64,000 bases of DNA from Parcubacteria group bacterium (GCA_041659685.1 JBAZXV010000003.1:2040-66039); one strand, 5' to 3'; positions 32,028 through 52,392 are shown, numbered from the stretch's first letter. Made by a program: numbers and translations. Notes: generated by a model not told the origin, from the sequence alone.

Positions 32028-32173
32028 CCCCGTAGACGTCCGACGTCTACGAAGTAGGATCCGGAAGATAATCCTTGCCCAAGCCACCCGCTCATTAGCG
32101 GTTTTTGGGCGGGACGGAAATACTTACCGAGGTAAGTATTTGAATACGTATTTTTCCCGCGATTCAAGGTTTC
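32028..32173 (+). repeat. mosaic palindromic repeat, modules A-B-C (GTAGACGTCCGACGTCTAC; CCGCTCATTAGCGG+T5; GGAAATACTTACCGAGGTAAGTATTTGAATACGTATT)
   Basis: Modules recur at 33441, 34964, 36637 and 52259. Confidence 0.75.
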
Positions 32174-32259
32174 AAATAATTCTATTTTTCGTATATCCCC
32201 TTTGAACATCATGATTTATTAAAAGAAGGGGGCGCGCCTGATGGCCGCCCCCAGCGAAA

Positions 32260-33312
32260 CTACCCTTCCCCCAAAACATCGTCCCTGACTGCATTAATAA
32301 CGCCGCGCTTGTTTAGTTCACCCAGTGCGGGCACCCAATATTTTTCATCCGGGTCATCCCGCGCTATTTTCAGCATGCATTGCTCGATGTCTTCGCCCGC
32401 CCTTTTGCAAAGAGCGGAAAAAATGAGAAATTTTTCTTCAGGGTGATCGGCAGATCGCTTGTAGGCGCCGATCAGGTGCGAGTTGGGAGCTCGGTTTGGG
32501 CCGTCGAGCAAAAGGACGATTGCTTCGCGGCAATTTTGCTCCAGCTTCTGGTTGAGAGCCAGAAATCCTTTCCATATTACAGAAAGAAGGGTATTCATGT
32601 CCCAACGTTTAATCCCATGTTTTATGAGATTTTTCAGCGCCCCGGCTGAGACGTTTCCCCCATTGCCGTTTTTCACCTCAAACTCATACGCCTCACAAAG
32701 CGTGAGTTCAAAGCGCTCCCGATCATTTCGAATCTTGAGAGCTTTGTAGGCCGCCGACCTGGTGTCCTTGTCAGGGTGACCGAGAAGAGTGATTAATTTT
32801 TTGGTCATGTGCATACCCGACCGGCCAGCGATACCGTTTACCGCGGCGAGGCGGACATCGGGATTATCATCTTTATGAGCTTTTTGAAAAATCACTTCCC
32901 CGATCCGTTGAAAGTAAAGAATAGAATTCCGGATCGCCAGAATTTCCACAAGCCGGCGCCTGATCTCCCACCGCTTGTGATCGACGACTTCCTCCATCAT
33001 CAAGTCGGTTTCCTGGAAGTGTTCCATCACTGTCAGGATTTCCGCCAGCGCTTTGCCTTCAACCAGATTGAGATCGCCGGTTTTGTTCACAAATCCCAGC
33101 AAAAGACGCAAAACTTTCCACTGGATGAGTTGGGGTTCCAAGATATCGAGACAGGCTCCCCCGACTGCCGTGTGTCCCTTGCAGTCAACAAGAACTTCAT
33201 GGACAGCTTCGGGGGGTAAAGTTTTTGCGCTTTCCAGGAACTCCTCTTTAAAAATGAAGCCGCCCACAAAAAGCCGGAAAAACAGACGCAGATTAGCCAG
33301 GTCTTCTTTCAT
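32260..33312 (-). CDS. HEAT-repeat protein
   Basis: PBS-lyase/HEAT-like repeats (DDNPDVRLAAVNGIAG; GHPDKDTRSAAYKAL). The start at 33312 has SD GGAGG. Confidence 0.65.
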   Translation of the reverse strand: MKEDLANLRLFFRLFVGGFIFKEEFLESAKTLPPEAVHEVLVDCKGHTAVGGACLDILEPQLIQWKVLRLLLGFVNKTGDLNLVEGKALAEILTVMEHFQETDLMMEEVVDHKRWEIRRRLVEILAIRNSILYFQRIGEVIFQKAHKDDNPDVRLAAVNGIAGRSGMHMTKKLITLLGHPDKDTRSAAYKALKIRNDRERFELTLCEAYEFEVKNGNGGNVSAGALKNLIKHGIKRWDMNTLLSVIWKGFLALNQKLEQNCREAIVLLLDGPNRAPNSHLIGAYKRSADHPEEKFLIFSALCKRAGEDIEQCMLKIARDDPDEKYWVPALGELNKRGVINAVRDDVLGEG

Positions 33313-33440
33313 GGGAATCCTCCGGGGCATATTTAGTTGGGAAGCTACGCGAGCAATCCCTCCATTTCTCTGGCTTTAAGTTAGGGGAAAACCTCGCTGT
33401 TTGTCAATAAATAAGGGAAAAAATCCATTTGGATAATTCA

Positions 33441-33557
33441 TGGGAAGAAAATACTTACCTCGGCAAGTATTTGAATACGTATTTATTTCCGCGGTTCAGG
33501 GTTGATTTTTTCTAAATACATTCCTGATTGTTTCCTAACATCGAATGTTAGGAAATG
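33441..33557 (+). repeat. mosaic palindromic repeat, modules C + D' (…ATACTTACCTCGGCAAGTAT…; TTTCCTAACATCGAATGTTAGGAAA)
   Basis: Direct repeat of 34964-35030 and 32110-32173. Confidence 0.75.
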
Positions 33558-33597
33558 GCAAATTTATTTACAGAAAAAATCTTAGCGCTCAAAAAAT

Positions 33598-33640
33598 TAA
33601 AGGCCAGGGAATCTTGCTTCCCTGGCCCATTAGGCGTTGC
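33598..33640 (-). terminator. rho-independent terminator for the minus-strand operon (GCCAGGGAA..TTCCCTGGC + T-run on the - strand)
   Basis: Perfect 9-bp stem. Confidence 0.65.
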
Positions 33641-33650
33641 TCCAATTGGT

Positions 33651-33887
33651 TTAAGACTGCCATTCGGCGATCTTTTCCATCGCTGCCGCGGCCTCGTCCG
33701 GGCTAACCAGGAACGAAACCTGCGAGTATCCTCTCGCGCAGCTGCCATAGTCCTTATCAACCGTCAGGCCGATACTTTCAGCGAACTGGACAAACTCAGC
33801 GCGCTTTCTCCAAGTTTCGCCGGTCAGTTTGATGTCCAGCTCAACGCAATTCGGCCCCAAAACAGTATCTTTCACTTCAACTGCCAT
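33651..33887 (-). CDS. small hypothetical protein
   Basis: 78 aa. Strong SD (AAGGAGA) 7 nt upstream. A terminator lies downstream. Confidence 0.55.
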   Translation of the reverse strand: MAVEVKDTVLGPNCVELDIKLTGETWRKRAEFVQFAESIGLTVDKDYGSCARGYSQVSFLVSPDEAAAAMEKIAEWQS

Positions 33888-33928
33888 AATAGTCTCCTTG
33901 CCAATATCGTTAAAGTCTCGACCATCGG

Positions 33929-34744
33929 TTAAACCAGCTTGAGGTTGAGCTTCTGTTCAACCTGGGCCAGTTCCGCAGTAAGCGCTTCCCGCAAATCCAC
34001 TGGGACGGCAAGAAGATTCCTGCGAACGTCCGCAACTGTCCTGCCCCAGGGCTCATCGGCTTCGATCTCATTAGCCAGCTCATTCAGGTATTCCCGGATT
34101 AGGAAGTCAGAATTATACCTGGCCAGCTGACGGATATATTCAACGACGAGCGCCGCCAATTTCGGGCACCAAAGCGGATGCCTGCCTTCAACCCTCTTTG
34201 CCAGAGGTTCTCGGGGGCTGGAGAATATTGAATCTTGGATAACCATAGTCAAACGGAATACCAATTCTGTCATTTCCTCTTCGCCCCTCCGTATCCTCCC
34301 CAGAATTAACACGTCGTCGCCAATTCGTTTGCGCCAAAGATTTCCTTTGAGCACTGATCCATCAGCCAGGCGCAAATTTTTTTCTTCTCCTCTGACTCTT
34401 GAGACCAGATAATTGAACGGCACCTCAACGACCGGGTCGTGCAAGTACTTGTGGCCGTCCAGGAGAAGGGTGAGGATTTTTTCCTTGAGAAAAACACTCC
34501 CCCAAAGTTCCGCATGCACAATCGTTATCTCTGGAAGATTAAGAAAGAAACTTCCATTCGGAATACTGATCCTGCAAACCGGATAAATCCCCTCCGGCTC
34601 CCTCGGAAAATGTTTTTTTTCTTTGGAGTGAAAGGCTGTGACATCCACACTGAACTCCATTTTATTGAACCCCGACTGCGTATTGTATTGAATCGTCGGG
34701 CCATTGACCAGTATCCAGCCATTTTCCAAATTCGTCCAAGCCAT
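33929..34744 (-). CDS. hypothetical protein
   Basis: 271 aa. SD AAGGAGG. Forms an operon with 33651..33887. Confidence 0.6.
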   Translation of the reverse strand: MAWTNLENGWILVNGPTIQYNTQSGFNKMEFSVDVTAFHSKEKKHFPREPEGIYPVCRISIPNGSFFLNLPEITIVHAELWGSVFLKEKILTLLLDGHKYLHDPVVEVPFNYLVSRVRGEEKNLRLADGSVLKGNLWRKRIGDDVLILGRIRRGEEEMTELVFRLTMVIQDSIFSSPREPLAKRVEGRHPLWCPKLAALVVEYIRQLARYNSDFLIREYLNELANEIEADEPWGRTVADVRRNLLAVPVDLREALTAELAQVEQKLNLKLV

Positions 34745-34963
34745 TGTGTTCCTCCTTTACTTTGTCCCCCTGTCTGTTCATTGAACAAAACGAGGACTTC
34801 GCAAAGCTGCCTGTGATTTTACCCTCACAAGTCGGGTTTTTCCGCCCATTGCGGAACAATGTCAAAAAACAATTGCTCTCCATTGTATATATAAAAACTC
34901 GCGTTTGTCAACGGAACGGGGAAATGCCTCTCCCCGGACTTGTTCTTTCCCGGCAATTTTTTG

Positions 34964-35030
34964 TGTGGGAAGAAAATACTTACCGAGGTAAGTATTTAAA
35001 TACGTATTTATTTCCGCGGTTCGGGAATCG
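34964..35030 (+). repeat. mosaic palindromic repeat, module C
   Basis: GGGAAGAAAATACTTACCGAGGTAAGTATTTAAATACGTATTTATTTCCGCGGTTCGGG. Confidence 0.75.
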
Positions 35031-35178
35031 CTTTTCTTAAGTTTAATTCTTGCGAAATTTTTTTTAACAATTAAGATTTACTGATTGACAAAAGCGAGTC
35101 AACGTGCTTTTTTTGTTTTATCCCGCAAGTAATAACAATGATCTTTCCCAACATAAATTAAAGGAGGAGCAAGATATT

Positions 35179-36114
35179 ATGCACGCAAGAAGATGGGTCT
35201 CAATGCCGCTTTGGCAGCTTCGCCTTTCCGCCTGGCTCTTCCAGATAGAAATTCTAAGCAAAGAAATTAGGAGGAGAGCGCTTGAGGGTGAGGAATGGCT
35301 GGAACTTTATGCCCGTATCCTAAGGTATTTTTTCTTAGTTATACTGGCGCTGATCTCACGAAAATTCAGCCTGATTTCTTCGGTCTATACCTGGTTCCGC
35401 CAGAGCGACAATATCCTCGATGGAGATGTGCGACTCCGTTTGGGGGATGACCTGGAATCTTATATGGCGAGAAAAAACAGGGTGATGAAAGATCTTTTCA
35501 ACCTTAACTTTGCAAAGGCGCAGACTGAGAGAGAAGATATTCTCATTGCCTATTTTGTCCGAGAAGCGCGGCGTTTGCCCGTCTTTTCCGAACTTTGCCG
35601 GCAAGCCCGAATATTATGGCTACTGATGCAATCAGATGCCCTTCGCAGAAAGATAAGACCGATTGTGCCCCGCTCCGAATTTAATGAATTCACTTTCGAT
35701 CAAGATGTTTGCATTCTTAGCTTTTGCGTTTTGGCTCTTGACGGAAACAAGGAGCGTTTGCAATCGATTGCCAAGGTTCTTTGCGGCTTATTCAGCAGAA
35801 CCGATTGCCTCCTTGACTGCTTTGATGATATCAGAAGAGGAATCATTCAGATTCCCCGGGAGGCATTTGAGCGGCATGGATTGGATCTTGAATCCATGCA
35901 AAAATGCCTGAATGAGAAAGACTTTTTGGCGTCGCCGGGATTTCTGGAATGGCGGCGTGAGGAAGGCCGGCGCCTTCAGAATCAATGGCAGGCGGCAATG
36001 AAAGCTGTCAGGAATAACTTCGGCAATGTTTTCTCGAGTGCGATCTTGACGAAGATCATCCAGCTTGTTATATACACGCGCTTCTATCGCTCGATCCATA
36101 ATCTGCCTGTCTGA
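35179..36114 (+). CDS. hypothetical protein
   Basis: The ATG at 35179 has a strong SD (TAAAGGAGGAG). Alpha-helical. No confident domain. Confidence 0.6.
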   Translation: MHARRWVSMPLWQLRLSAWLFQIEILSKEIRRRALEGEEWLELYARILRYFFLVILALISRKFSLISSVYTWFRQSDNILDGDVRLRLGDDLESYMARKNRVMKDLFNLNFAKAQTEREDILIAYFVREARRLPVFSELCRQARILWLLMQSDALRRKIRPIVPRSEFNEFTFDQDVCILSFCVLALDGNKERLQSIAKVLCGLFSRTDCLLDCFDDIRRGIIQIPREAFERHGLDLESMQKCLNEKDFLASPGFLEWRREEGRRLQNQWQAAMKAVRNNFGNVFSSAILTKIIQLVIYTRFYRSIHNLPV

Positions 36115-36343
36115 TCCGGCCAACCTTGCGCGTGCCTTTAACCGCTGGTTTCTTCAACCACATCAAGGAGAGCCATCCTTTAAAAGGGCCAGTCCGTGCT
36201 TCGGACTGGCCTCTTTTACTTACAATGGTATTTTCCTGGGAAAAAATAATTAGATGAATAAGTGTTTTTTTCCGGACACTGTTTTTTGCGGGAGACAAAA
36301 ACTTGCGATATGTGATGAAAGCTTGAAAATTTCGGGCGACCGT

Positions 36344-36368
36344 TTTCCTAACATTCAATGTTAGGATT
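36344..36368 (+). repeat. module D'-type palindrome (TTTTCCTAACATTCAATGTTAGGATTTT)
   Basis: Related to 33525-33552. Confidence 0.6.
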
Positions 36369-36373
36369 TTTTT

Positions 36374-36603
36374 ACAAAAATCGACGCTGAATCTTTGCTA
36401 AGGTTCAATCTTAGCAAAGTATTATTTTCCAAACTCAGCATTTTTATACGGCCGTGGGAAAATGCTAAGCTTAAAAGTATGGAGAAGAGATGCATCAAAG
36501 GAACGACTGAAGCAGAAGTTTTTTTGTTCCCCTCCCCCGACTTTGCCCGAAATATGAGGAGCGGTAGGATAAAAAATAGAAGCTTCTATGGAGGCTTCTA
36601 AGG
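36374..36603 (+). repeat. second copy of the 220-bp long-hairpin unit + long-form core + double palindrome
   Basis: About 85% identical to 4655-4870 / 4585-4650. Confidence 0.75.
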
Positions 36604-36636
36604 GTATATTGCTAAAAAGCTCGACGTTGAATAATA

Positions 36637-36700
36637 TCTGATTATTTCCCAACATCGGATGTCAGGAAACGCCAGGAGTTGTAGACGTCGGACGTCTACG
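36637..36700 (+). repeat. mosaic palindromic repeat, modules D-A (TTCCCAACATCGGATGTCAGGAA; GTAGACGTCGGACGTCTAC)
   Basis: About 95% identical to 52328-52392. Confidence 0.75.
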
Positions 36701-36795
36701 GACAAGGCAAATATTCAAACAGCGTCCGATTGGACGCTGTTTTTGTGTCTTCCCTTGAAAAGATTATGTATCCTGAAATTGAATATTGGAAAAAT

Positions 36796-38703
36796 TTATG
36801 GCCGGTAGACGCAGCGGAAACCGGTATTGGTGTTCTTGCTGGTAATAGGAGTTCCCAAGCTTAAGGCATAGATGCCAGCAATTGTACCGTACCACCATGT
36901 TCCACCGCGGTTAAAAGCAAGATTCGTCGAGTTTGTGTTTCCAACCGGATTAAATGTATAAACCATTCCCATATTTTGAGCTGAATTCCAACTGGGATTC
37001 CCAGGTCGCAAACTGGCATAGCTCATCGTCCCGTAATCATCAATAGTAGTATATTCTTTCCAGTCCTGACTATCATCCGGACCAGTGGTTGAATGGGGAT
37101 TGTCTTTTGGTTTGATCATATCAGAAACATTTTCAAAAAGGTTTCCGGAGAGGTCCCAAACCGTTTCACTATTGGAAAGCGTGAAAGTGCGCCTTTGCGC
37201 CGAGGGAGCGGAATCTCCGGTACCTTCATAGCCTTGCGAATCATCTGCGTTAGCAGCGCCAACGGACATACTGGGAACATTATCCGTATGCCCCAGATAA
37301 AGACCCCCTTCCCCCACAGTTCCCGAAGTCCAATTGTCACCGATATTTTCGATGTTCCTCGCCATAGTCATCCATTCGTTGTTGGTGATGAGATGGTACC
37401 CAGTTCCAAGTCCTGAACAAGAGGAAACGGAGGTGGTTTGGGAGATGTTAGCAATGGAATAACCCGATGCAAGTGATTTGACATAAGCAGAAGTACAGGC
37501 TTGAGCATTATTATCATATGTTTGCTTGTTTGTCGCCGGCGTCACATCCCCCGCTCCGTCGTTGTTAAAATCGCACTTAGCCTCATACTTCATGACGCAG
37601 AAGCCTCCGCCGGTTCCGTAGCGGACGTCTCCGGGAACGGGAACGTATCCATCGGGGCAACTCGTGGGCTGGACATGGGGGTCGGTCGGAACATCCAGGT
37701 ATTCATCAGTTTCACTAGCCTGGGTGTTGTAAATCTTGGCGGTTTTATCGGTTGAATTGTAATAAATTTTCCCTTCCTCGGCCGAGGGAGCAGCGGTTTG
37801 GGAATCAAGCTTCAGAGTTCCGATATTCAGTTTGGCATTGGTGAGGGTGAGGTTTCCCGAAGAATCGGTGGCGGGGATGACGCTCACTCCTCCGGTTGTT
37901 GAGGTATTGAGATCATCCAAAAGATCAGTGTTGAGGTTCGCAACTTTGGTTGCGGAAGCAACGGTGAACGGGGCGGTTCCGGTGATTTGGGCGGAGGAAA
38001 AGGTGAGAGAACTGATGTTTCCGGTGGCGGAGAGGTCCACCATGTTTGAAAGGCTTCCTCCGTTCCAATTCCAATTCCCGTTGAAGTTTCCGTCGGTGAT
38101 GGTGTTGGTTCCGAGATCAAGATTGGTGATATTTCCAGTGGTGAGGGTGATCCCGTCGGCCAATTTGTCGCTCGTTATGGTATGGCTTTGGATATCATCT
38201 CCCGTGATGGCGTTCGAAAGGTTTAGTTTGGAAGCGTCGATGTTGGCGGCAGGCGATATCTGGTCATTGGTAATATACCCTGAAAGATTCAGCTTGGAAG
38301 GGCTGATTGAAGCATTGTCGGCGATGGAAGCATCGGTAATCGTTCCGGATTTGATGTTGCTTTCCGTAATTGTTCCGCGGCTCAGACTTTCTTCTCTCAG
38401 AGAGCGATTTTGAATAGTCTTGGCGACGATAATCCCATCCGTTCCCATGGTTCCCGAAACATCGATTTGGTCATTGGAAAGAAACTGGTCAAGGGTGGCA
38501 GTTTTTCCTTTGGCGTTTTGAAGCTTGGCCCTTTCGGTATTAATGGTATAGGTTTTTGAGTTTTTGGAGGCGATAAGGGTGGTTCCGGAGATTTCAGTGA
38601 TAACGGCTTTGGTAAGTTTGGTTTTTTTGGCGGCCAGCGCCGGAGAAACCGCGGAAAGAAGGAATGCGATGGCCAGAACGGCGATGGTTTTTTTGTTTTT
38701 CAT
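36796..38703 (-). CDS. secreted protein with C-terminal formylglycine-generating-enzyme (FGE-sulfatase/SUMF1)-like domain and an N-terminal repetitive region
   Basis: Signal peptide MKNKKTIAVLAIAFLLSAVSPALA. C-terminal NEWMTMARN..GNLFENVSD..GGTWWYG..GFRCV matches the FGE-sulfatase fold. Confidence 0.72.
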   Translation of the reverse strand: MKNKKTIAVLAIAFLLSAVSPALAAKKTKLTKAVITEISGTTLIASKNSKTYTINTERAKLQNAKGKTATLDQFLSNDQIDVSGTMGTDGIIVAKTIQNRSLREESLSRGTITESNIKSGTITDASIADNASISPSKLNLSGYITNDQISPAANIDASKLNLSNAITGDDIQSHTITSDKLADGITLTTGNITNLDLGTNTITDGNFNGNWNWNGGSLSNMVDLSATGNISSLTFSSAQITGTAPFTVASATKVANLNTDLLDDLNTSTTGGVSVIPATDSSGNLTLTNAKLNIGTLKLDSQTAAPSAEEGKIYYNSTDKTAKIYNTQASETDEYLDVPTDPHVQPTSCPDGYVPVPGDVRYGTGGGFCVMKYEAKCDFNNDGAGDVTPATNKQTYDNNAQACTSAYVKSLASGYSIANISQTTSVSSCSGLGTGYHLITNNEWMTMARNIENIGDNWTSGTVGEGGLYLGHTDNVPSMSVGAANADDSQGYEGTGDSAPSAQRRTFTLSNSETVWDLSGNLFENVSDMIKPKDNPHSTTGPDDSQDWKEYTTIDDYGTMSYASLRPGNPSWNSAQNMGMVYTFNPVGNTNSTNLAFNRGGTWWYGTIAGIYALSLGTPITSKNTNTGFRCVYRP

Positions 38704-38807
38704 TTTGGTTTTCTTTAGCTGGTTAAATGCCAGCGGAAAACACAAAAGGCCTCCCGCTCGCCGACAACCCCTTTCGGAGTTGTCCACTACCCTTTCGAGT
38801 AGCGACA

Positions 38808-38858
38808 TTACTACATGATAGCGAAACGGAAAGCCGTTTCTATGTAGTAATGTTTTTA
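38808..38858. promoter_or_regulatory. inverted repeat CATTACTACATG-N25-CATGTAGTAATG upstream of the FGE-domain gene
   Basis: Perfect 12-bp arms, seen directly. Function unknown. Confidence 0.4.
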
Positions 38859-39149
38859 GGTGCCATGCTCCGACGCAACGTCGGAGTTTAGGCGTAAATT
38901 GTTGGCTTTATTATACTATTTCAAAAAAAACGCGCAAGTAGCAAACATTCTCCCCGCACTCTTCGGGATGTTCGAGTGGATATTTTTGCACGGGGCGAAA
39001 ATACTTTGCCAGCCAAATAACTCTTTTTTTCGAATCTGGAATATCCATTTCTAAAGTTGAACTCTGAAGTGACCATGGCGGACGAATGAAAGAAAACGCT
39101 CATTTTGCAGGTATAAATAAAAAGATTGTCAATATTTTTTACACGCCTG

Positions 39150-39178
39150 TTGACAAATTATTTTACAAATATTACACT
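39150..39178 (+). promoter_or_regulatory. sigma70-type promoter TTGACA-N17-TACACT for the Panacea TA operon
   Basis: Consensus -35, 17-bp spacer. Confidence 0.55.
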
Positions 39179-39197
39179 TATGAACAACATCAACCAT

Positions 39198-39974
39198 ATG
39201 CTTGGAAAATTTATCTTAAAAAAGCGCAAAAAACTTGGCCTGACGCAGGATTTTTTGGCGTCAAAACTTGGCATTTCCCGCCCAACCTACATGCAGATAG
39301 AACAAGGAGAAAGGGATTTGACTCTTTCTGAAGCAAAAAAACTTGCGGATATATTTGGCATAGATTTCTGTCATTTTTCACAGGGTGAGGATTATGCCGT
39401 CACCGTAGAGATAGAAAAAGAAAAAAAACAAACAAAGGAAAAGGTTCCGGCGATGAGAATAAATGTCCCGCAAAAAAACCTAAAGAAATTCAAGGAAGTT
39501 TTTCTGTATGTTTTGTCAAAAATTGGAAGCAAGCCGAATGTGGGAGAAAGCGTGATAAATAAACTTTTCTATTTTATTGATTTTGACTACTACGAAAAAT
39601 ATGAGGAACAATTAATCGGTGCGACCTATATAAAAAACCATTACGGACCCACTCCCTGCGAACTGATAAAAATAGTTGAGGAAATGAAAACGAGAGGAGA
39701 GGTGGAAGAAGTGAGGAGCAGGCATTTTGAGTTCCATCAAAAGAAATTTTTTCCTTTGCGCAAGCCTGATTTGAGCATACTCACCGCAAGAGAAATAGAG
39801 CACATAGACGACGTTTTAAACAGGCTTTCTGACAAAAACGCGCGGGAAATTCGCGATTATTCCCACGAGGACGTTCCTTACAAGGTCCATAAAGACGGAG
39901 AAAAAATTGACTACGAAAGCGTTTTTTATCGCGATGAAAAATATTCAGTAAGAAGTTATGACGATGAACTATAG
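39198..39974 (+). CDS. HTH-XRE + Panacea (DUF4065) fusion protein, putative PanA-type antitoxin
   Basis: HTH block LGLTQDFLASKLGISRPTYMQIEQGERDLTLSEAKKLADIFG. C-terminal Panacea block INKLFYFIDFDYYEKYEEQLIGATYIKNHYGPTP. Confidence 0.78.
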   Translation: MLGKFILKKRKKLGLTQDFLASKLGISRPTYMQIEQGERDLTLSEAKKLADIFGIDFCHFSQGEDYAVTVEIEKEKKQTKEKVPAMRINVPQKNLKKFKEVFLYVLSKIGSKPNVGESVINKLFYFIDFDYYEKYEEQLIGATYIKNHYGPTPCELIKIVEEMKTRGEVEEVRSRHFEFHQKKFFPLRKPDLSILTAREIEHIDDVLNRLSDKNAREIRDYSHEDVPYKVHKDGEKIDYESVFYRDEKYSVRSYDDEL

Positions 39975-40305: not shown

Positions 40306-40318
40306 TATCGCTGAAATA

Positions 40319-40347
40319 TTCCGACATCCGATGTTGGGGCATTTTTA
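40319..40347 (+). repeat. module D-type palindrome (TTCCGACATCCGATGTTGGGG)
   Basis: Variant of TTCCCAACATCGGATGTCGGGAA. Confidence 0.55.
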
Positions 40348-43768: not shown

Positions 43769-43770
43769 AT

Positions 43771-44160: not shown

Positions 44161-44241
44161 CAAAAATAACCCCGCCAAGGGGTCATTTTTTATATCCAAA
44201 GATATCCTTCCGGCAGACAGTGCAACCGGCTTGCCGAATGC

Positions 44242-44595
44242 TTAATTAATCTTCTTGAAAGTTATCTTATATGAAGGCTCGTATTCCGCGTTATTCTTGT
44301 CTTTGAGGTTGATGCTCTCCCCTTTCATGAGCGACGTCATCGCAATGTCAGTGAGCATTTGTCCCAGGCTTTCGATTTCCGACTTGGATTTTTCCAGCTC
44401 CTCATAGCGCGACCCCATCTCGGCCTGAATGGCGGATTCCTGCGCCTTTTTCTTTTCGCGGAGCTTTTTCAGCTCTTCTTTTGTGTCTTCGTAGCCTTCC
44501 GATTGCGAAAGGGCATCCCGATATTCCCGGCCGATTTCTTTGCAAGTTTTCTTATGTTCCTGGATTTTGTCGAATACTTCCTGCATTTTTTGCAT
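44242..44595 (-). CDS. hypothetical coiled-coil protein
   Basis: 117 aa, Glu/Lys-rich. A terminator hairpin (ACCCCGCCAAGGGGT) lies downstream at 44166-44195. Confidence 0.5.
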   Translation of the reverse strand: MQKMQEVFDKIQEHKKTCKEIGREYRDALSQSEGYEDTKEELKKLREKKKAQESAIQAEMGSRYEELEKSKSEIESLGQMLTDIAMTSLMKGESINLKDKNNAEYEPSYKITFKKIN

Positions 44596-44720
44596 ATTTT
44601 TTGTTCTTGAAAAAGAAAATTAATAACGTTTGTTATCTTAACACAAAGCCGGCGGATTGGAAACCTGCCCAATAATTATTTTGGTTGGACGCAAAGGCGG
44701 ATTGTGCTACCATTCCTGCA

Positions 44721-45994
44721 TGAAAAACAATCAGGAAAAATTTGATATCGCGGTCATCGGAGGCGGACCGGCCGGCATGATGGCGGCAGGGCGGGCGGCC
44801 CAAATGGGCGCCAGAGTCGCGCTTTTGGAAAAAAACACCACTCTCGGCCGCAAGCTCCTCATTACCGGAAAAGGCCGCTGTAATCTGACGCAGGCGGAAT
44901 TTGACGACAAGGTGATTATCGAAAAATTCGGGAAAAACGGAAAATTTTTATTTTCCTCGCTGGCGGCTTTCGGGCCGGAGGAAGTCATTAAATTTTTCGA
45001 AGACAGAAAATTACCCGTTAAAACCGAAAGGGGCGGACGGGTTTTTCCCGTTTCGGATAAATCACTGGATGCCTTGCGGGTGATGAAAAAATATCTGGAA
45101 AATCACAAGGTGAAGATAATGTCCGGCAGCAGAATCTACGGATTTTTCAGCGACGGGAAAAAAATTACGGGCATAAAACTAAAACCCGGAAGAAATATGC
45201 CCGGCGACAATCAGATCTCGGCTGATAAATTCATTCTCTGCACGGGCGGAAAATCCTATCCAATCACCGGTTCAACCGGCGACGGATATCAATGGGCCAA
45301 GGAATTGGGACATACGATAACTCCGCCCGCTCCGGCCCTGGTGCCGATCAAAGCCAAAGAGGCTTGGATCCGGGACGTGCAAGGCTTGAGTTTGAAAAAC
45401 GTGGAAATAAAACTGCTGCAGGACAACAAGAAACGGGATTCGAGATTCGGAGAAATGCTTTTTACGCATTTCGGCCTCAGCGGACCGATCGTGCTGGATC
45501 TCAGCAAGCGCGCCGGAGAATTGATGCGGCAGGGCGAAGTCACAATTTCCATTGACCTGAAACCCGCCCTTAGCTCAGACCGTCTTGATGCCCGGCTGCA
45601 AAGGGATTTCAAAGATAACGGAAAGAAAGACTTTATCAACTACCTTCCGGAGCTCCTGCCGCAAAAAATGATCCTTCTGATGATAAAACTCTCCGGCATC
45701 GATCCGCGAAAAAAAATAAATTCCATCACCCGGGATGAACGGAAAAAACTAGCGGGCCTCCTCAAGGATTTGCGCCTGACGGCTGACGGAACAACCGGAT
45801 ATGATCAGGCCATCGTCACGAGCGGAGGAGTGAGCACGAAAGAAGTGCATTCCAAAACCATGCAATCCCGAATCGTCAGCAACCTGTTTCTTGCCGGCGA
45901 GATTTTGGATTTGGACGGGCCATCCGGCGGATACAACCTTCAAATGTGCTGGAGCACCGGATATGCCGCCGGAACATACGCGGCGCAATTATGA
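44721..45994 (+). CDS. NAD(P)/FAD-dependent oxidoreductase, HI0933/BaiN-like flavoprotein
   Basis: DIAVIGGGPAGMMAAGRAA FAD-binding motif. Length and pattern match TIGR00275-type flavoproteins. Confidence 0.85.
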
Positions 45995-46347
45995 CTTCGC
46001 AGTCAAGCCAACTTATAATGGTTTCGGGATTCCGGACACAGCTTCTCGGCTTTTTTCTGGTTCGCGGGATGGCTTTTTACCGTCGGATTTCTGCATCTCG
46101 CTTTCTGGAAAGGCGTGCTGGCTATCGTCCTCTGGCCGTATTTTATCGGCCTCGCCATAAGCGCAATGGCCGGACGCTAGAATCCCGGAAAAATATTTTT
46201 TCTGATTTTTTATTGAGACAAAGAAGATCATGTGTTTTCGGCATGATTTTTTCATTCACGGTTCGACGCCAAAAAAGCGCCTGACCCCTTTTCAAATCCG
46301 TTAAAGTGATGTATGATTAAAACTCAGTGCTTAACAAGGGAAAACCA

Positions 46348-47799
46348 ATGGCGAATGACGATGTAGCAGTGCGTTTCAATAACGTAACATTTGAATACGG
46401 ATATAAAAAACCCATTTTGGATGAGGTTTCTTTTTCTTTGCGCCGCGGCTCGAAAATCACGCTCATGGGGCAAAACGGCGCCGGCAAAAGCACGATTTTG
46501 AATTTGATTGCCGGATCCCTGAAAGAAGAAGACGGATCCATCTATGTCGACCCACGGCTCAAAATCGCCTACGCAAAACAGGTCATTCCGAGCGATCAAA
46601 TGCCTTTGACGGTCAGGGAATTCTTCGAGCAATGCTTTTTGGAAAAAATATATAATATTGATCCGAAAATCGACAGCGTACTTGACCTTGTTAATCTCAA
46701 GGCGCCGCATGACAAAATAATCAGGGAATTTTCCGGCGGACAGCAGGCTCGCCTCCTTTTGGCTTCGGCTTTGATCCAGGATCCGGATCTTCTCATTCTT
46801 GACGAGCCGACCAACAATTTGGACGCGGCGGGAATCGCCCGGCTTACGGAATTTTTGATGAATTACGACAAAACCTGCATTGTTATTTCCCACGATGCGG
46901 ACTTCTTGAATTCTTTCACGGACGGAGTCCTCTATCTTGACGTGTTCACCCACAAAGTTGAACAATATCTCGGCGACTATTATGTCGTGGTGGCGGAAAT
47001 CGCGGACCGCATCGAAAAAGAAAAGAGAAAAAATGCGCAATACGAAAAAGAAATTATCGCCAACAAAGAAAAAGCTAATTTTTTCGCAAACAAGGGAGGA
47101 AAAATGCGTCTCGTCGCGCGAAAAATGCGCAATAAAGCGGCTGAAATGGAGGAATCGAAAGTTGATGTAAGACGGGAGGACAAAGCCATTCGAAATTTCA
47201 CCATTCCCGTTCAGGAAGAACTGCTGGGAGAAATCCTGAATATCAGTTCACTCACTGTGATGAGAGGCCAGAATCCGGAAGAGAAGAAAACGGCTGTCTC
47301 GCTCAAAAAAAACACTCATCTTCTGCTGGCCGGCCCCAACGGGATCGGAAAAAGTACTTTGCTTGAATCGCTGGCTTCAGGCAGTGCCAAGGGCGCAAAA
47401 ATTGCGGACGGCATCCGGATCGGATACTACCGGCAGGATTTTTCGACGCTTAATTTCGAAGACACCGTGCGTGATTCGCTTGCGGCGGCAGCGCGAAAAA
47501 ATGACGAAGAGATGCTTCGATCAGTCGCCTCGGGATTCCTTATCGATAAAAAAATAATCAATGAAAAGATCGGAACCCTTTCCGAAGGGCAAAAGGGGCT
47601 CGTCGCTTTTGCGCGCCTCGTTCTTGAAGAGCCGGGACTTTTGATTCTGGACGAGCCGACGAACCACATCAATTTCCGCCATCTGCCGGTTATCGCAAAA
47701 GCCCTGGATTCCTTCAAGGGCGCCATGGTTCTTGTGAGCCATGTCCCTGAATTCGTGCAGCAAATCCGGATAGACGAAGTACTGGATCTGGAAAAATAA
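46348..47799 (+). CDS. ABC-F family ATPase (tandem ABC domains, no TM domain)
   Basis: Two Walker A motifs (GQNGAGKST; GPNGIGKST), two LSGGQ-like signatures and an inter-domain linker. Confidence 0.9.
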   Translation: MANDDVAVRFNNVTFEYGYKKPILDEVSFSLRRGSKITLMGQNGAGKSTILNLIAGSLKEEDGSIYVDPRLKIAYAKQVIPSDQMPLTVREFFEQCFLEKIYNIDPKIDSVLDLVNLKAPHDKIIREFSGGQQARLLLASALIQDPDLLILDEPTNNLDAAGIARLTEFLMNYDKTCIVISHDADFLNSFTDGVLYLDVFTHKVEQYLGDYYVVVAEIADRIEKEKRKNAQYEKEIIANKEKANFFANKGGKMRLVARKMRNKAAEMEESKVDVRREDKAIRNFTIPVQEELLGEILNISSLTVMRGQNPEEKKTAVSLKKNTHLLLAGPNGIGKSTLLESLASGSAKGAKIADGIRIGYYRQDFSTLNFEDTVRDSLAAAARKNDEEMLRSVASGFLIDKKIINEKIGTLSEGQKGLVAFARLVLEEPGLLILDEPTNHINFRHLPVIAKALDSFKGAMVLVSHVPEFVQQIRIDEVLDLEK

Positions 47800-47819
47800 T
47801 TTTACGAATTACACTATTG

Positions 47820-47852
47820 AAACCGCCCCGCTAAGGAGGGGCGGTTTTTGTT
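47820..47852 (+). terminator. rho-independent terminator (CCGCCCC..GGGGCGG + T5)
   Basis: Perfect hairpin plus T-run. Confidence 0.75.
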
Positions 47853-47902
47853 CGGAACGGAGATAAGCAATTAATTACTTATCTCGTTAAGTCATCATCT
47901 TT

Positions 47903-48745
47903 TCACAGTTTAAGTTTTTTATTTCTCAGGCTGAACTTTGGAAAAAGCGTCCCGGAAAGAATGATATTTTTCGCAGAACATGCCTCCCGGCCAAAAGACA
48001 AAACGGCAGGGCTTTTTCCCGTAAACGAAGGCGGGCGATAGAAAAATTTCATCGCCCCCAATTCTGAAGAAGATTCTTTTTCTTCGCTGCCGACAATCAG
48101 GGTGCTCTTGACGGGACTGCTTAAGTTGCCCGCCGCATCGCCCGCCAAACCCGTAATTTCATACTTACCCGGAGTTAATTCCGGAAAAATGATGCCGGAC
48201 GGCAAAACCCACGTGCCATCTTCGTTGTTAACGGCGGCATAGACAGTTCCATTGATATCGACTACGATTACGGCTGTTTTATCATCAACCGTTCCTTCGA
48301 GATCCGGGCTGGAATCGTTTGTGACGGAACTGTTAACAGTCATCTTGGGCGCCGCTGTGTCGATAACCAGACCTTCCATGGCCCTTATGCTGATCCGGGC
48401 GCCTTCAAGGGGAACCGCGTTCATTGTCACATCATAGATCCCGTCCGCCAGATCGGTTTCCGCGCCTGCCGCCCAACTTCCGTCGCCGCTGTTGACTCCC
48501 CGAAAAGTTTGGTTGGCGACGTTCACGAATATGCCGGCGCTGGGTTCATCGATGGTGCCGGTAACGGTCGGCTTCGTATTGTTGGTTATCTGATAATTAA
48601 TGCTGAGTCGCGGACCGGGAATCACCGTGGGGTTAAGGAGAAGCTGATTTCCCGCTGTCTCCTGCGCTTTTGCCGGACTGACAGCTAAAATCAGCCAAAA
48701 TAGAGCCAGATTCGCCAACACCCTTCCAAATAAATTATTATCCAT
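47903..48745 (-). CDS. secreted Ig-like domain protein
   Basis: Signal peptide (LALFWLILAVSPAKA). Ig-like beta-rich repeats (TVTGTIDEPSAGIFVNV; EGTVDDKTAVIVVDING). Confidence 0.6.
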   Translation of the reverse strand: MDNNLFGRVLANLALFWLILAVSPAKAQETAGNQLLLNPTVIPGPRLSINYQITNNTKPTVTGTIDEPSAGIFVNVANQTFRGVNSGDGSWAAGAETDLADGIYDVTMNAVPLEGARISIRAMEGLVIDTAAPKMTVNSSVTNDSSPDLEGTVDDKTAVIVVDINGTVYAAVNNEDGTWVLPSGIIFPELTPGKYEITGLAGDAAGNLSSPVKSTLIVGSEEKESSSELGAMKFFYRPPSFTGKSPAVLSFGREACSAKNIILSGTLFPKFSLRNKKLKL

Positions 48746-48957
48746 CTTTTTTAAATATCAATTAATTTATCCTTCTCTGCGATGCAAGATAAGCGCACTC
48801 AACCGTCCCTATTTATGAATACTTATTTTAGTTTTTTTTATTACTGATATTTCAGAAATCGAGCGCCTGTAAAATCCGGCTTGGCAGAGATAAAAACCAA
48901 AAAGCGCTCCATTGCAAAAGACGCTTTAGCTTCGGAATGAAGATGCTCCAAACAGTT

Positions 48958-50631
48958 TTATTCGCGGCGGATTATAAGAGAGGCAAGGGCGGCAAAAAGA
49001 GAAAGCGCGGCCGAAATTGAAAACACGAGAATCGTCCCTTTTCTGAAAGGCCCGCTCAAAATACTGGGAAAAAATTCATGTCCCAACAAATCGTTTCTGG
49101 CGGAATCGGACAAACTGTTTAAAACTTGGCCTGGAACGAGCGAACCCAGAGGATTATAACCCAGAAAGGCGGCGAAAATTGCATTGGTGGGCGGCAGATG
49201 CGAAACGGCTTGAGCGGTAGGAACCGGGATGCCTTCTTTAATCAAAGATTGGTCGAGCGTGCCGGGGAGGCTGGAGGAAAGTCCGATCGTAATCAGCGCA
49301 AAAACAATAACAATGCCCATACTGTTTGAAACATTGAGAAATGTAGACCTCATTCCCGAGGCGACTCCGCGATGCTCAGGCGGAACGGAGTTCATTATCA
49401 CAGCCGTATTGGGAGAAAAGAATATCCCCATACCGGCTCCCAGGATAAAAATAATAAGAGCGAAAACAGGATAAGAAAAATTTATCGGGAGAAAAAGAAG
49501 CCCGATGAAAGCCAAAGCGGATACGAGCATGCCTCCCACCGTAAAATACCGGGAGCCGAAACGATCGGAAAAATAGCCGCCGATAGGCCCGGTGATAAAA
49601 AGTCCGGCGGTCAGGGGCAAAATAAAAATGCCGGCCCAAAGAGGAGTGTCCGCGAAATCATACCCGCGAAGCGGCAGCCAAATCCCCTGCAGCCAGATAA
49701 TGAGCATGAAAAGAAGGCCGCTTCTCGAGAGCGAGGAAAGGAAAGAAGCGACATTTGCGGCGGTAAAAACAGGAATGCGGAAAAGCTCCAGCCTGAACAT
49801 GGGAGCAATTTTTTTTCTTAATTTCTCCACAAAATAAAAAGCCGCGAGGAGAAGGAGGCCGACTGCCATAGCGCCGATGACTTTCGGATTCGTCCACCCC
49901 ATGGGCGACGACCCATACGGAATGATTCCGTATATGAATCCGACCATAAAAATCGTCAGGCCTCCCGCAAAAAGGATGTTTCCGAGGATATCCAGCTTCA
50001 CTTTTTCTTTTTTTCGCTTCACTTCCCGAAGGGAATAATAGGCCCAGACGGTTCCTCCGACGGAAAAAGGAATGCTCACCAGAAAAACGTATCTCCAATA
50101 TATCGCGGCCAGAACTCCACCAAGGACGAGTCCGATAAACTGCCCGGAGAGAAACGCCATTTGGTTTATTCCGAGCGCGAGACCCCTTTGCTTTTCCGGA
50201 AACGCATCGGTGATTATGGCCGAAGAATTGGCAAAAATGAACGCTCCTCCCACCGCCTGGACCATTCGGAAAATAATGAGCTGGATTGCCGCGCTGTTTC
50301 CCTGGCCGTGGATGAAATAGAGAAGAGTCGATCCGACCGCAAAAACAAGAAATCCGAAATTATAGAGGCGAACCCGGCCATACATATCCGAAATGCGTCC
50401 GATCGTCACCAAAAGGACGGAAGTCACCAAAAGATACCCCATTATCGTCCACAAAAGGTAATTCGATTCCTCCGGAAGAAGAGGATCAACTCCGATTCCC
50501 CGAAAAATCGCGGGAAGGGCGATGAGGACTATGCTGGCGTCGATGGCCGCCATAACGACACCCAGCGTAGTGTTGGAAAGCACAATCCATTTATAATCCA
50601 TATTTCGAATACGATTGAGTAGGCCTGGCAT
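48958..50631 (-). CDS. MFS transporter, DHA2 (14-TM drug:H+ antiporter) family
   Basis: About 14 predicted TM helices. MFS motif A region (GRISDMYGRVRLY). Confidence 0.88.
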   Translation of the reverse strand: MPGLLNRIRNMDYKWIVLSNTTLGVVMAAIDASIVLIALPAIFRGIGVDPLLPEESNYLLWTIMGYLLVTSVLLVTIGRISDMYGRVRLYNFGFLVFAVGSTLLYFIHGQGNSAAIQLIIFRMVQAVGGAFIFANSSAIITDAFPEKQRGLALGINQMAFLSGQFIGLVLGGVLAAIYWRYVFLVSIPFSVGGTVWAYYSLREVKRKKEKVKLDILGNILFAGGLTIFMVGFIYGIIPYGSSPMGWTNPKVIGAMAVGLLLLAAFYFVEKLRKKIAPMFRLELFRIPVFTAANVASFLSSLSRSGLLFMLIIWLQGIWLPLRGYDFADTPLWAGIFILPLTAGLFITGPIGGYFSDRFGSRYFTVGGMLVSALAFIGLLFLPINFSYPVFALIIFILGAGMGIFFSPNTAVIMNSVPPEHRGVASGMRSTFLNVSNSMGIVIVFALITIGLSSSLPGTLDQSLIKEGIPVPTAQAVSHLPPTNAIFAAFLGYNPLGSLVPGQVLNSLSDSARNDLLGHEFFPSILSGPFRKGTILVFSISAALSLFAALASLIIRRE

Positions 50632-50815
50632 AGTTTTCCGGACTTCTTTTTTATGGCCGTAAACATTTATATCACTTAATACTAATGCCTCCAGAGTTTA
50701 TTCCAAGCCAACCGCTTCACGCTGGAAAAATGCGCAATCTGCCGGATAAACCGAAAACCGTCCGCCATAACGGGACGGCCTTTTCATATGAAAATACTTT
50801 CTGAAGCGCGTATGA

Positions 50816-51886
50816 TTATTTCTCCCAGGAATAAGCCTTAAATGTCCAGTCAATCGCCGTGCGAATGTCCTGCCAGCGATACGGATCGTCAAGGATAACC
50901 ACGACGATGCGATGCAAGCGGGTTGGATCCGATACTCCCATAGGAAGGGAATATCCGGCCGCCGGCGTGAAACCGGTTTTTCCGCCCATGCAATTTGGAA
51001 TATCGTCGAGAAGAATATCGCTGTTAATGAGAGTGTGCGACGTCTGGCCGTCGCAAGAATATATTTCTGAATTATTCGGAAATCTGAACATTTTCCAAAC
51101 TTCGTCAAAGCGCATCGAATAAGCGGCGATGCGCGCAATGTCAGCCGCCGAGGAATAGCATTCGGATTCGCGTCCGTCCGGCTCGAGTCCGGAAGGCGTG
51201 CAAAAATGCGTATCCGTAAGTCCCATCTGTTCCGCTTTCCGGTTCATGAGACCGGCGAAGGCGTCCTGGGATCCGGCGATATGTTTTCCGAGGGCAATCG
51301 CCGCATCGTTGGCGCTGTTCATCAGCATCGCCTGAAGAAGGCTCCGCGCCGAAACCCGCTCCCCGATCTTGAGCCGGGGACTGATGCAATAGCCGCTGCG
51401 TGGACAGCCGATCTTTGTTCCTTCGATATAGACTTCCTCTTCGCCAATTTCCACCGGTTCTTCAAGATCACCTATTTTTTCCATAGCCAGAATGGCTGTC
51501 ATCATTTTCGTGAGCGATGCGATTTGCTTTTGGTCCGCTTCATGACCTCCGGCCAATATTTTCCCCGTATCGGCATCAACCACCACAAAGGCATGAGCGG
51601 TTGGAATCGCAAGATCATGAATTTCTTCATTCCGCACCGGCTGGTATTCCGGATCGTCGACGGCTTGGGCCTTAATCCGTTCGATTTTTTTCGCTTCCGC
51701 CTCAGGAATCGCTTTCTGAATTTCGTCCGGCCGCACCTCGTTGCGGAGCGATTTGTAATGCCGGCTGATCATATACGCTCCGTCAGCGATTATAATCGCT
51801 ATGAGCAGCAATAAAACAAAACCATATTTTGGTTTTTTGGGAGGCGGATCAGGTTTATATCTTTTAGGCAGGTATTTTATGTCCAT
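50816..51886 (-). CDS. D-alanyl-D-alanine carboxypeptidase (serine peptidase S11, PBP5/6-like)
   Basis: SLTKMMT (SxxK), SANDAA (SxN) and KTGFT (KTG) active-site motifs. N-terminal membrane anchor. Confidence 0.85.
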   Translation of the reverse strand: MDIKYLPKRYKPDPPPKKPKYGFVLLLLIAIIIADGAYMISRHYKSLRNEVRPDEIQKAIPEAEAKKIERIKAQAVDDPEYQPVRNEEIHDLAIPTAHAFVVVDADTGKILAGGHEADQKQIASLTKMMTAILAMEKIGDLEEPVEIGEEEVYIEGTKIGCPRSGYCISPRLKIGERVSARSLLQAMLMNSANDAAIALGKHIAGSQDAFAGLMNRKAEQMGLTDTHFCTPSGLEPDGRESECYSSAADIARIAAYSMRFDEVWKMFRFPNNSEIYSCDGQTSHTLINSDILLDDIPNCMGGKTGFTPAAGYSLPMGVSDPTRLHRIVVVILDDPYRWQDIRTAIDWTFKAYSWEK

Positions 51887-52081
51887 TACGAAGAAATTTT
51901 AGCAAATGAAAGGAGCCTCTGCAAATCAGCGGAAGATAAAACATTGACAGCCGCCGCGGCAGGATGTTTTTCCGCGGCGGAAGCTGGAAATTGGCGAAGG
52001 AGAAAAAATGGTCGAGAAGACTGGAAATAATATCCGCAGCCCCCCGTATTACCTATTAATCTAAATCTTAAAAACAGGAAT

Positions 52082-52231
52082 ATGCTGTGGACCATATTCG
52101 TAATCCTGCTGATCCTCTGGATTTTGGGAGTGGTGAGCTCCTATACTTTGGGAGGCTATATTCACATTTTGCTTGTCATAGCGATAGTGGTTCTTCTGAT
52201 CAGATTAATTGAAGGCAGAAGAGTCATTTGA
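52082..52231 (+). CDS. Lmo0937-family small membrane protein
   Basis: 49 aa: MLWTIFVILLILWILGVVSSYTLGGYIHILLVIAIVVLLIRLIEGRRVI. It is below the ORF-track cutoff and matches the conserved family pattern. Confidence 0.6.
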   Translation: MLWTIFVILLILWILGVVSSYTLGGYIHILLVIAIVVLLIRLIEGRRVI

Positions 52232-52258
52232 CGATCCAGAAGACAACCCCTGCTCAAA

Positions 52259-52392
52259 TCAACCGCTCATTGGCGGTTTTTCTTCGGGGCGGAAATACTC
52301 ACCAAGGTAAGTATTTAAATACGTATATCTGATTATTTCCCAACATCGGATGTCGGGAAACGCTAGGAGTTGTAGACGTCGGACGTCTACAA
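52259..52392 (+). repeat. mosaic palindromic repeat, modules B-C-D-A
   Basis: CCGCTCATTGGCGG+T5; GGAAATACTCACCAAGGTAAGTATTTAAATACGTAT; TTCCCAACATCGGATGTCGGGAA; GTAGACGTCGGACGTCTAC. Confidence 0.75.

Follow-up and report, generated by a model that had tools for sequence, protein, structure and literature searches.

A predicted GTAG-type REP linked to RayT genes within BIME-like clusters of hairpin repeats in a Parcubacteria chromosome

A 64 kb stretch of DNA from a Parcubacteria group bacterium (64,000 nucleotides; GCA_041659685.1 JBAZXV010000003.1:2040-66039), referred to here as the window and numbered from its first letter, carries short palindromic modules (A, B, C and D) in several clusters between positions 32,028 and 52,392. 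We favour, with a probability of about 0.6, an explanation in which these are clusters of several unrelated short hairpin repeats, resembling bacterial interspersed mosaic elements (BIMEs) and lying in a variable region rich in orphan genes, with module A as the repetitive extragenic palindrome (REP) of a REP-associated tyrosine transposase (RayT). Module matches were collected with few or no mismatches allowed and were compared with 100 shuffles of the window. All of the modules listed in an initial annotation of this DNA were recovered at or within a few bases of where it had placed them and far above the shuffle expectation, so that its view of them as real repeats stands; its start points were 4-10 nt off because flanking bases had been included. 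The orders it gave (A-B-C, C-D', C, D', D-A, D and B-C-D-A) are all correct. Every cluster is intergenic in the map of open reading frames (ORFs) and genes of the window, and at least one gene end lies upstream of five of the six clusters; placement just downstream of gene ends is usual for REPs (PMC3733652).

Module A (GTAGACGTCSGACGTCTAC) is a 19 nt perfect palindrome, or 23 nt when its TT/AA flanks are counted, with three exact copies in the window against 0.01 expected from the shuffles. The first of these, which is the same as the REP flanking RayT genes at metagenome loci, is predicted to fold as a DNA hairpin of -9.1 kcal/mol (z = -5.1). One scan of a metagenome collection with a search pattern of 18 specified bases returned the exact 19-mer in 72 stretches, with 89 copies in total and 1-4 per contig; the contigs have a GC content of 35-47%, with one outlier at 70%. 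The tetranucleotide GTAG opens A in all three window copies and in the 89 metagenome copies, and is base-paired with CTAC. The flanks are non-random, with TT before 57 of the 89 copies and AA after 63, giving the consensus TTGTAGACGTCSGACGTCTACAA. The features of REPs that we looked for are a short hairpin palindrome, a GTAG end and a cognate RayT with HUH and tyrosine motifs that is flanked by the repeat, and all three are present; as regards copy number and extragenic position, there are three copies of A per 64 kb, and 31 of the 89 metagenome copies lie inside ORFs. Judged on these sequence characters, module A is a GTAG-type REP of the kind described by Di Nocera et al. (2013; PMC3733652). 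The 19-mer itself is found in no paper of the literature searched. A subclass of A (TGA-A-TCA) is nested in longer palindromes, the outer arms of which vary between copies and stay complementary, and recalls the REPs 'inserted within palindromes' (PMC3733652).

The transposase, a Y1/HUH enzyme, is encoded in 15 of the 72 A-bearing stretches. It matches the Pfam family Y1_Tnp (PF01797) with 31.2 bits (cutoff 23) and scores 27.9 bits against NCBIfam REP_Tyr_transpos, below the cutoff of 80; the motif P84-N85-H86-x-H88 (HxH) and Tyr146 are invariant in the alignment. More than 2,350 homologues exist, to which NCBI gives the names Nomurabacteria, Paceibacterota and Minisyncoccia and the Joint Genome Institute (JGI) the label 'REP element-mobilizing transposase RayT'; automatic annotation already names these genes. 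At 13 of the 15 loci A (exact or with up to three mismatches) is located about 20-25 nt upstream of the start codon and is followed by TGnTATACT, and at all 13 it recurs right after the stop codon; 11 of these 13 genes contain a further copy in frame, read as VDV[GR]RLQ. Since the upstream copy is followed by an extended -10 box (TGnTATACT), the palindrome fills the -35 region of the RayT promoter, an arrangement that suggests autoregulation.

The RayT orthologues of about 50% identity share a conserved housekeeping neighbourhood, in which RayT is a single-copy gene, and have other palindromes at the three positions equivalent to those of A (AGACAGCGCCTWAGGCGCTGTCT in L214 and AGATAGAGYCTWAGRCTCTATCT in L215). 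Different, lineage-specific palindromes occupy the same positions in the orthologues of L214-L216 and L028, and a RayT of 24% identity is flanked by GATGTTAATGTCCGACATTAACATC. The palindrome changes with the RayT lineage, and hence REP and enzyme co-vary; such co-variation is the signature of REP/RAYT pairs (PMC3733652) and indicates, from the sequences compared, that the two have co-evolved. Most of the RayT genes examined from the candidate phyla radiation (CPR) hold three copies of their own REP: one at the -35 position, one within the coding frame and one that coincides with or follows the stop codon.

The 31 intragenic copies of A are situated in open frames that run for at least 60 codons on both sides, where they are read as VDV[GR]RLQ or [CS]RR[RP]TST and add seven codons (VDVGRLQ or CRRPTST) to the gene. 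The hosts confirmed by Pfam are glyceraldehyde-3-phosphate dehydrogenase (GAPDH), the gamma subunit of ATP synthase (AtpG), LeuRS, UvrA and CysRS. By eye, in-frame copies were also seen in ArgRS and PyrF. Intragenic REPs, notably in uvrA and tRNA synthetase genes, are known from other phyla (PMC3733652). Copies of A also delimit a deletion: the sequences of L080 and L054, which are 99-99.9% identical, differ by a precise 216 nt deletion between two A copies (Table 1).

The initial annotation had interpreted the modules as one mosaic family shuffled in different orders, with an architecture like that of the BOX elements of streptococci. This interpretation is not supported, as the distributions of the modules are independent. 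A occurs alone in its 72 stretches, no B, C, D or E (a fifth palindromic family, described below) being present in the 408 kb of A-bearing loci, and C and D occur without A in L003, L008 and L012. B (CCGCTCATTRGCGG followed by T5, 31 nt past the stop codon of the DUF5670 gene at 52231) is a weak terminator together with the 3' flank of that gene and no repeat family. A terminator scan flags B at 32088 and it qualifies as an intrinsic terminator, probably a leaky one owing to its short stem (5-7 bp); its second copy exists only within a 94 nt duplication. Self-BLAST revealed that the true repeat units exceed the modules in length. The only two composite duplications in the window are the 94 nt B-C unit (83% identical between copies) and the 66 nt D-A unit (97% identical); they contain 16 mismatches in 94 positions and two in 66, respectively (Fisher p = 0.005), an inequality which implies separate duplications of different age. 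A single ancestral B-C-D-A array split by a 4.5 kb insertion (32-36.7 kb) was considered and rejected, as the halves differ in divergence and there is no clean target-site duplication. Because A is found elsewhere without B, C and D and because only two composites were duplicated, the arrangement resembles REP/BIME-like accumulation rather than a BOX-like unit, and its closest analogue is a REP/RAYT system with BIME-like clustering.

The core of module C is present four times in the window with 0-3 mismatches (none expected from the shuffles), embedded in units of 57-75 nt with conserved non-palindromic flanks; copy 2 is 93% identical to residues 34966-35022 across 57 nt. An alignment of eight copies from at least four genomes shows no variation in 20 columns of the core, at the centre of which stands either GA or the complementary dinucleotide TC. 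A genome scan with the core gave mostly chance-level matches and three that are clearly related, in L003, L008 and L012. L003, a Moranbacteria metagenome-assembled genome (MAG), contains the same sigma/anti-sigma/136-aa operon with about 65% amino-acid identity, and just downstream of it a D-type hairpin (AACCCGACCCAACATTGAATGTTGGGTCGGGTT) and C adjoin. L008 and L012, both from one Parcubacteria MAG, have one C copy each, with two D'-like hairpins in addition in L012. C is also present in L210 (an IMG/VR contig), and L218 has a variant in which a change in one arm is symmetrically compensated in the other. In module D the inner AACAT-N3-ATGTT is kept and the outer stem varies compensatorily; a 17 nt core is shared with L003 and L078. 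The Gram-positive LexA box is GAAC-N4-GTTC, with a spacing unlike that of D. Where the C and D stems are imperfect, the pair is always G.U (G.T) when read on the minus strand (for the inverted copy, when read on the plus strand). No gene family accompanies C or D among the loci compared.

None of the modules matches a family of Rfam 15 at gathering score, the sole match with E <= 1 being a chance one to HrrF (23.8 bits versus 77); the statement of the initial annotation that the modules are unrelated in sequence to pneumococcal BOX is consistent with this result. The B-C-D-A composite has no match in phage and plasmid collections. A scan of viral contigs gave no match to A and one to C (that in L210); the 14-base D core is non-specific in these contigs, where at least 120 stretches were matched.

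The clusters lie in a variable, orphan-gene-rich and repeat-rich part of a Parcubacteria (CPR) chromosome, and the relatives of the neighbouring operon are from Parcubacteria or Moranbacteria. As previously proposed, the C copies are direct repeats, as judged from their flanks, that bracket the HEAT gene and a 78+271-aa operon. A search of 5.8 billion proteins found no homologue of the HEAT protein apart from the protein itself, and 1.84 billion representatives yielded only 14 distant relatives of the 271-aa protein. Five relatives that have the same extracytoplasmic function (ECF) sigma operon were found, four via its anti-sigma-like protein (at most 72% identity) and L003, and the downstream genes differ in each. 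In one of the four (contig P0011) the sigma operon is directly followed by genes for ABC_tran, Peptidase_S11, Metallophos and a DEAD helicase, so that residues 31.9-46.3 kb of the window are extra relative to that genome. Judged from the differing downstream genes, the orphan HEAT gene and the rare 271-aa gene, the bracketed blocks are not conserved in synteny. In 52 kb from L211-L213, which have the same sigma operon, E is present and there is no A, B, C or D.

In the mechanism that we propose, A would be the hairpin recognized by a vertically inherited, single-copy RayT with a wide distribution among Paceibacterota and Nomurabacteria. Like the RAYTs that have been studied, this RayT would bind and cut the A hairpin in single-stranded DNA, and its action would spread identical copies, or maintain them, both between genes and in frame within them; such copies may also serve as substrates for deletion and rearrangement. 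B would have been copied once, inside the 94 nt segment. C and D may represent two further palindrome families, usually found together, that are most probably REP-like with another, unseen enzyme and would act secondarily as terminator or insulator hairpins. Their REP-like nature is suggested by analogy with A, by their patchy spread in relatives, by the conservation of their flanks within the genome and by the diversity of the hairpins of CPR RayT genes. The orders of the modules could then result from independent insertion into the same permissive intergenic spots beside terminators together with two segmental duplications, for which no dedicated module-shuffling mechanism would be needed.

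Several observations weigh against this explanation. No RayT gene is located within the 64 kb window, and we infer the presence of a cognate RayT of A in the source organism. Single matches to A such as that in L032 (70% GC) may be due to chance, and the copies of A are few, with three in the window and three in one 998 kb contig; classical REPs reach tens to hundreds of copies per genome. C and D have no GTAG/CGTC tag and are never beside a transposase gene in the loci examined, with no Y1_Tnp ORF in the window, L003, L008, L012, L210 and L218 (about 100 kb). The C core is invariant across lineages in which proteins are only about 65% identical, and C carries a loop-less 10 bp palindrome (AATACGTATT) that is unable to form a hairpin. 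In L210 the core fills the spacer of a TTGACA-N18-TATTCT promoter, and two similar promoters on the minus strand of the window have C at 41 and 62 nt upstream of them, distances that differ by two helical turns. The invariance of C, the presence of AATACGTATT and these promoter positions are explained by a DNA-binding regulator no less well than by a REP. C, and perhaps D, might accordingly be operators of a lineage-conserved transcription factor, with the HEAT gene, the 78+271-aa operon and a 336-aa gene as a local regulon and the repeats as paralogous regulatory regions; we regard this as unlikely, although it is the alternative to be taken most seriously. It gains from the four AATAC/GTATT half-sites that are created by the 24 bp perfect palindrome of C and the abutting AATACGTATT, from the invariance of the core in at least four CPR genomes despite differing flanks, from a C copy in the window that sits between two divergent TTGACAAANGCGAG boxes, and from the C copy of L008, about 80 nt upstream of a TTGACA-N17-TATACA promoter. 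It is weakened by three of the nine C copies (32110, 52291 and that of L012), which occupy convergent or 3' regions without a promoter, by the genes beside C, which are unrelated between genomes, and by the 57-75 nt non-palindromic flank, which is 84-93% conserved within the window and therefore points to duplication by descent. In addition, three close relatives in which the sigma operon is retained have no C in 52 kb, and no candidate regulator is linked to C. As a separate candidate, a role of C as a sigma-70 promoter in the window was rejected because the -35-equivalent positions (CGGAAA and GAAGAA) are unfit, although the L210 core does sit in a promoter spacer.

The modules might instead function mainly as RNA, as terminators, insulators, mRNA-stabilizing hairpins of 3' untranslated regions (UTRs) or small RNAs, with the transcribed units being promoter-E-D-A-terminator (36536-36745) and the DUF5670 3' UTR up to the terminator at 52461-52490. 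This is a still more doubtful proposition. B, D' (36345) and inverted D (40319) do score as hairpin plus T-run terminators, gene ends precede most clusters as noted above, the stem imperfections of C and D are all G.U on one strand, and D-A at 36634 has a promoter-like box on one side, a strong terminator on the other and no ORF in between; furthermore, transcription of REPs has been proposed for other bacteria (PMC3733652). However, the A, C and D cores are conserved across genomes, as plain terminators are not; A and most C and D copies have no downstream T-run; no Rfam family matches; and the in-frame A copies inside genes reflect insertion behaviour at the DNA level. The folding of the composite (52233-52400), with z = -4.7 for the minus strand and z = -2.5 for the plus strand, speaks for an RNA role, but the better-folding strand is antisense to the DUF5670 gene and to the downstream terminator. 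An RNA role is compatible with RayT-linked repeat accumulation as a secondary role. A reading of C (or C-D) as attC-like sites, integron-like or HUH-driven, with the bracketed one- or two-gene blocks as mobile cassettes, is the least probable of all those considered here, even though direct C repeats flank both blocks, the cargo is orphan or rare, the region after the sigma operon differs in every relative, the 271-aa homologue in L219 likewise lies between direct repeats, which contain a different GTAG-type palindrome (GTAACGTAGATATCTACGTTAC), and recombination between A copies removes the L054 segment. No integrase, recombinase or transposase domain was detected by Pfam in 60 window ORFs (almost all plausible genes of at least 150 aa), for which reason the integron-like interpretation was rejected; moreover, the bracketed genes have their own promoters and point either way, the 271-aa homologue in L218 is not bracketed by C, and no empty-site or presence/absence pair was found. 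Palindromic repeats occupy most intergenic spaces of these genomes, so that bracketing is expected by chance. Only marginally less remote, and speculative, is the idea that the clusters are joints of a CPR-specific recombination process in which HUH/RayT-type enzymes acting on A, C and D excise, delete and insert orphan blocks. If true, this would be a functional counterpart of the integron that works on single-stranded DNA, and it would account for why the accessory regions in such tiny genomes are scrambled and cassette-like.

Among known systems, the REP/RAYT systems, or REPtrons, reportedly treated by Nunvar in 2010 and by Bertels & Rainey in 2011, are alike in several respects: a 19-23 nt palindrome starting with GTAG is present in multiple copies, mostly just downstream of genes; a single-copy Y1/HUH RayT with a conserved neighbourhood is flanked by its cognate REP, different RayT lineages having different REPs; and copies are found inside uvrA and tRNA synthetase genes. 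The differences are that the host is a CPR bacterium with a low copy number per genome, that the A palindrome is perfect and includes GTAG, whereas the tag is unpaired in the described families, that A does not form the inverted doublet of REPINs (REP doublets forming hairpins), that most RayT genes here hold a third, in-frame copy of their own REP and about one third of the A copies are in ORFs, and that C and D have neither a tag nor a link to RayT. REPs in CPR bacteria are described in no paper of the literature searched. Clusters that mix repeat families are known from the BIMEs of Escherichia coli and the mosaic intergenic regions of Neisseria, which likewise combine different short palindromic and non-palindromic motifs in varying order between genes. 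BIMEs consist of one REP family (Y and Z palindromic units) in alternating orientation with fixed linkers, whereas the window mixes unrelated families and its oriented units (C, D-A and B-C) are all on the plus strand except for D at 40319. BOX elements of Streptococcus pneumoniae are also modular and intergenic with hairpin potential, but are ordered as boxA-(boxB)n-boxC with modules that are never independent, unlike A, and have no sequence or taxonomic relation to the modules of the window. The Rickettsia palindromic elements (RPEs) resemble A in being in-frame palindromes in housekeeping genes that are not destroyed by them; RPE-1 is about 100-150 bp in length and has no known transposase, whereas A contributes seven codons and has a cognate RayT. 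Imperfect direct palindromes that separate one-gene orphan blocks recall integron attC sites and clusters of attC sites lacking integrases (CALINs), but there is no IntI, and the cargo genes in the window are variously oriented and have promoters of their own; inspection of the C units by eye showed no R''/R' core sites (RYYYAAC/GTTRRRY).

Family E (AATAGAAGCTTCTATRGAGGCYTCTA) has at least ten copies in the window, one of which (36575) is inside a cluster. It consists of two abutting 12 bp palindromes (TAGAAGCTTCTA and TAGAGGCCTCTA), with all copies on the plus strand. Except for that at 36575, the copies lie 27-308 nt upstream of plus-strand starts of unrelated genes, some being preceded by a TTGCCC-N16-TAGGAT promoter-like box, and E looks like a candidate lineage-wide leader or operator motif that is conserved in related Parcubacteria contigs. 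A 184 nt repeat with two hairpins (36376-36552 versus 4656-4839, 82% identical) is situated upstream of E-type promoters. As the promoter-E-D-A-terminator unit contains no ORF, it may be an orphan transcript or a decayed gene. Between the 271-aa gene and a homologue, the promoter and the 5' leader (about 140 nt) show about 87% identity, against only 43% for the proteins, and two hairpins of the leader change in a compensatory manner (GTTCA..TGAAC to GCTCA..GAGC and CCGC..GCGG to CTGC..GCAG); by sequence comparison, this leader is a candidate cis-regulatory RNA with no Rfam match. A match to the LOOT RNA (RF03000) at 38763-38894 on the minus strand (70.5 bits versus a gathering score of 46.4) overlaps the 5' end of a 670-aa gene. 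Signs of an accessory region that is mobile or related to defence are two genes with SocA/Panacea antitoxin domains (10597-11205 and 39126-39974, the latter fused to HTH_3) together with one RhuM/Fic and one Bro-N gene in the first 20 kb. Long diverged direct repeats with 71-73% identity (59483-61348, and 23937-24409 versus 62655-63400) are probably repeated domains of large surface proteins. The positions of the features are given in Table 1.

Table 1. Repeat units, clusters and associated features; positions with no locus name refer to the window.
Feature	Position	Strand	Description
A-B-C cluster			Between the convergent ends of the ECF-sigma operon and the HEAT gene
A copy 1	32032-32050		GTAGACGTCCGACGTCTAC; exact match; centre flipped (C) relative to the other two copies
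B-C repeat copy 1	32058-32151	+	B at 32088-32106 (hairpin and T5); C core at 32118-32141
C unit copy 1	32102-32171	+	T-run, GGGNNG, 24 bp palindrome AAATACTTACCGAGGTAAGTATTT, tail GAATACGTATTT, degenerate second hairpin
C cores	32116/32118-32141; 33449-33472/33474; 34972/34974-34997; 52291/52293-52316
HEAT gene	32260-33330	-
C-D' cluster			Downstream of the 78-aa gene, upstream of the HEAT gene
C unit copy 2	33441-33503	+	Core at 33449-33472; loop flipped to TC; one A.C mismatch, G.U on the minus strand
D' hairpin	33532-33554		TTCCTAACATCGAATGTTAGGAA, perfect palindrome; DNA hairpin of -8.9 kcal/mol, z = -5.9
271-aa gene	33929-34744	-
Conserved leader of the 271-aa gene	34745-34915 (-); L218 4830-5000; L219 about 4840-5000
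C alone	34964 region		In a divergent promoter region
C unit copy 3	34958-35022	+	Core at 34974-34997; between divergent promoter-like boxes
Promoter-like boxes	34898-34911 (-); 35085-35098 (+)		TTGACAAANGCGAG
D'...E-D-A cluster			Between convergent gene ends
D' hairpin	36345-36367		TTCCTAACATTCAATGTTAGGAT, then T7; terminator-like
E module	36575-36600	+	AATAGAAGCTTCTATGGAGGCTTCTA; behind promoter-like box TTGCCC-N16-TAGGAT at 36543-36571
D-A repeat copy 1	36634-36699	+	D at 36646-36668, exact A at 36681-36699; intrinsic terminator next, 36717-36742
Half-degenerate C-like copy	38983-39019	+	Left flank and left arm kept (TTTTTGCACGGGGCGAAAATACTT...)
Inverted D	40319-40339	-	TTCCGACATCCGATGTTGGGG; T-run follows; 13 nt past the stop codon of a 115-aa gene
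DUF5670/lmo0937 gene	52082-52231		49 aa
B-C-D-A cluster			Directly after the 49-aa DUF5670/lmo0937 gene
B-C repeat copy 2	52233-52326	+	B at 52263-52281, C core at 52293-52316; begins 1 nt past the DUF5670/lmo0937 stop
D-A repeat copy 2	52325-52390	+	D at 52337-52359, exact A at 52372-52390; next strong terminator 52461-52490
Extra D core	558-574		CCAACATTCAATGTTGG; outside the span originally reported
E copies, 26 nt each	3224, 7980, 11749, 13487, 17361, 18334, 19872, 20587, 22476, 36575
E copies in relatives	L211 1268 and 7622; L213 9259 and 11393
RayT genes with three REPs	L080 3523-4280; L214 4962-5691; L215; L216; L028
TGA-A-TCA subclass of A	L023 1060 and 1747; L050 1160; L059 4172; L022 4470
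Hosts of in-frame A	L066, L088, L064, L071, L046/L057/L068, L078, L024 and others
Deletion between A copies	L080 4067-4259 versus L054 6538-6560		RayT N-terminus lost

CPR bacteria (Patescibacteria) have very small genomes that are assumed to be poor in repetitive or selfish DNA, and their dynamics are known almost only from MAGs. The 'mosaic' of the window would represent hairpin repeats that have accumulated in the ordinary way within a variable orphan-gene region and along its edge; the interest lies in the CPR host, in a 19-mer that is invariant across lineages, in its in-frame copies and in the invariance of the C and D cores. The seven-codon inserts VDVGRLQ and CRRPTST are repeat-derived and call for caution by annotators. 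Paceibacterota and Nomurabacteria carry a widely spread REP/RayT system in which the 19-mer is invariant; this 19-mer is inserted in frame in essential genes such as uvrA, leuS, cysS, gap and atpG, and it mediates precise deletions between its copies. This provides a concrete, testable mechanism for micro-rearrangements in CPR genomes, and the 19-mer may serve as a sequence marker for the group.

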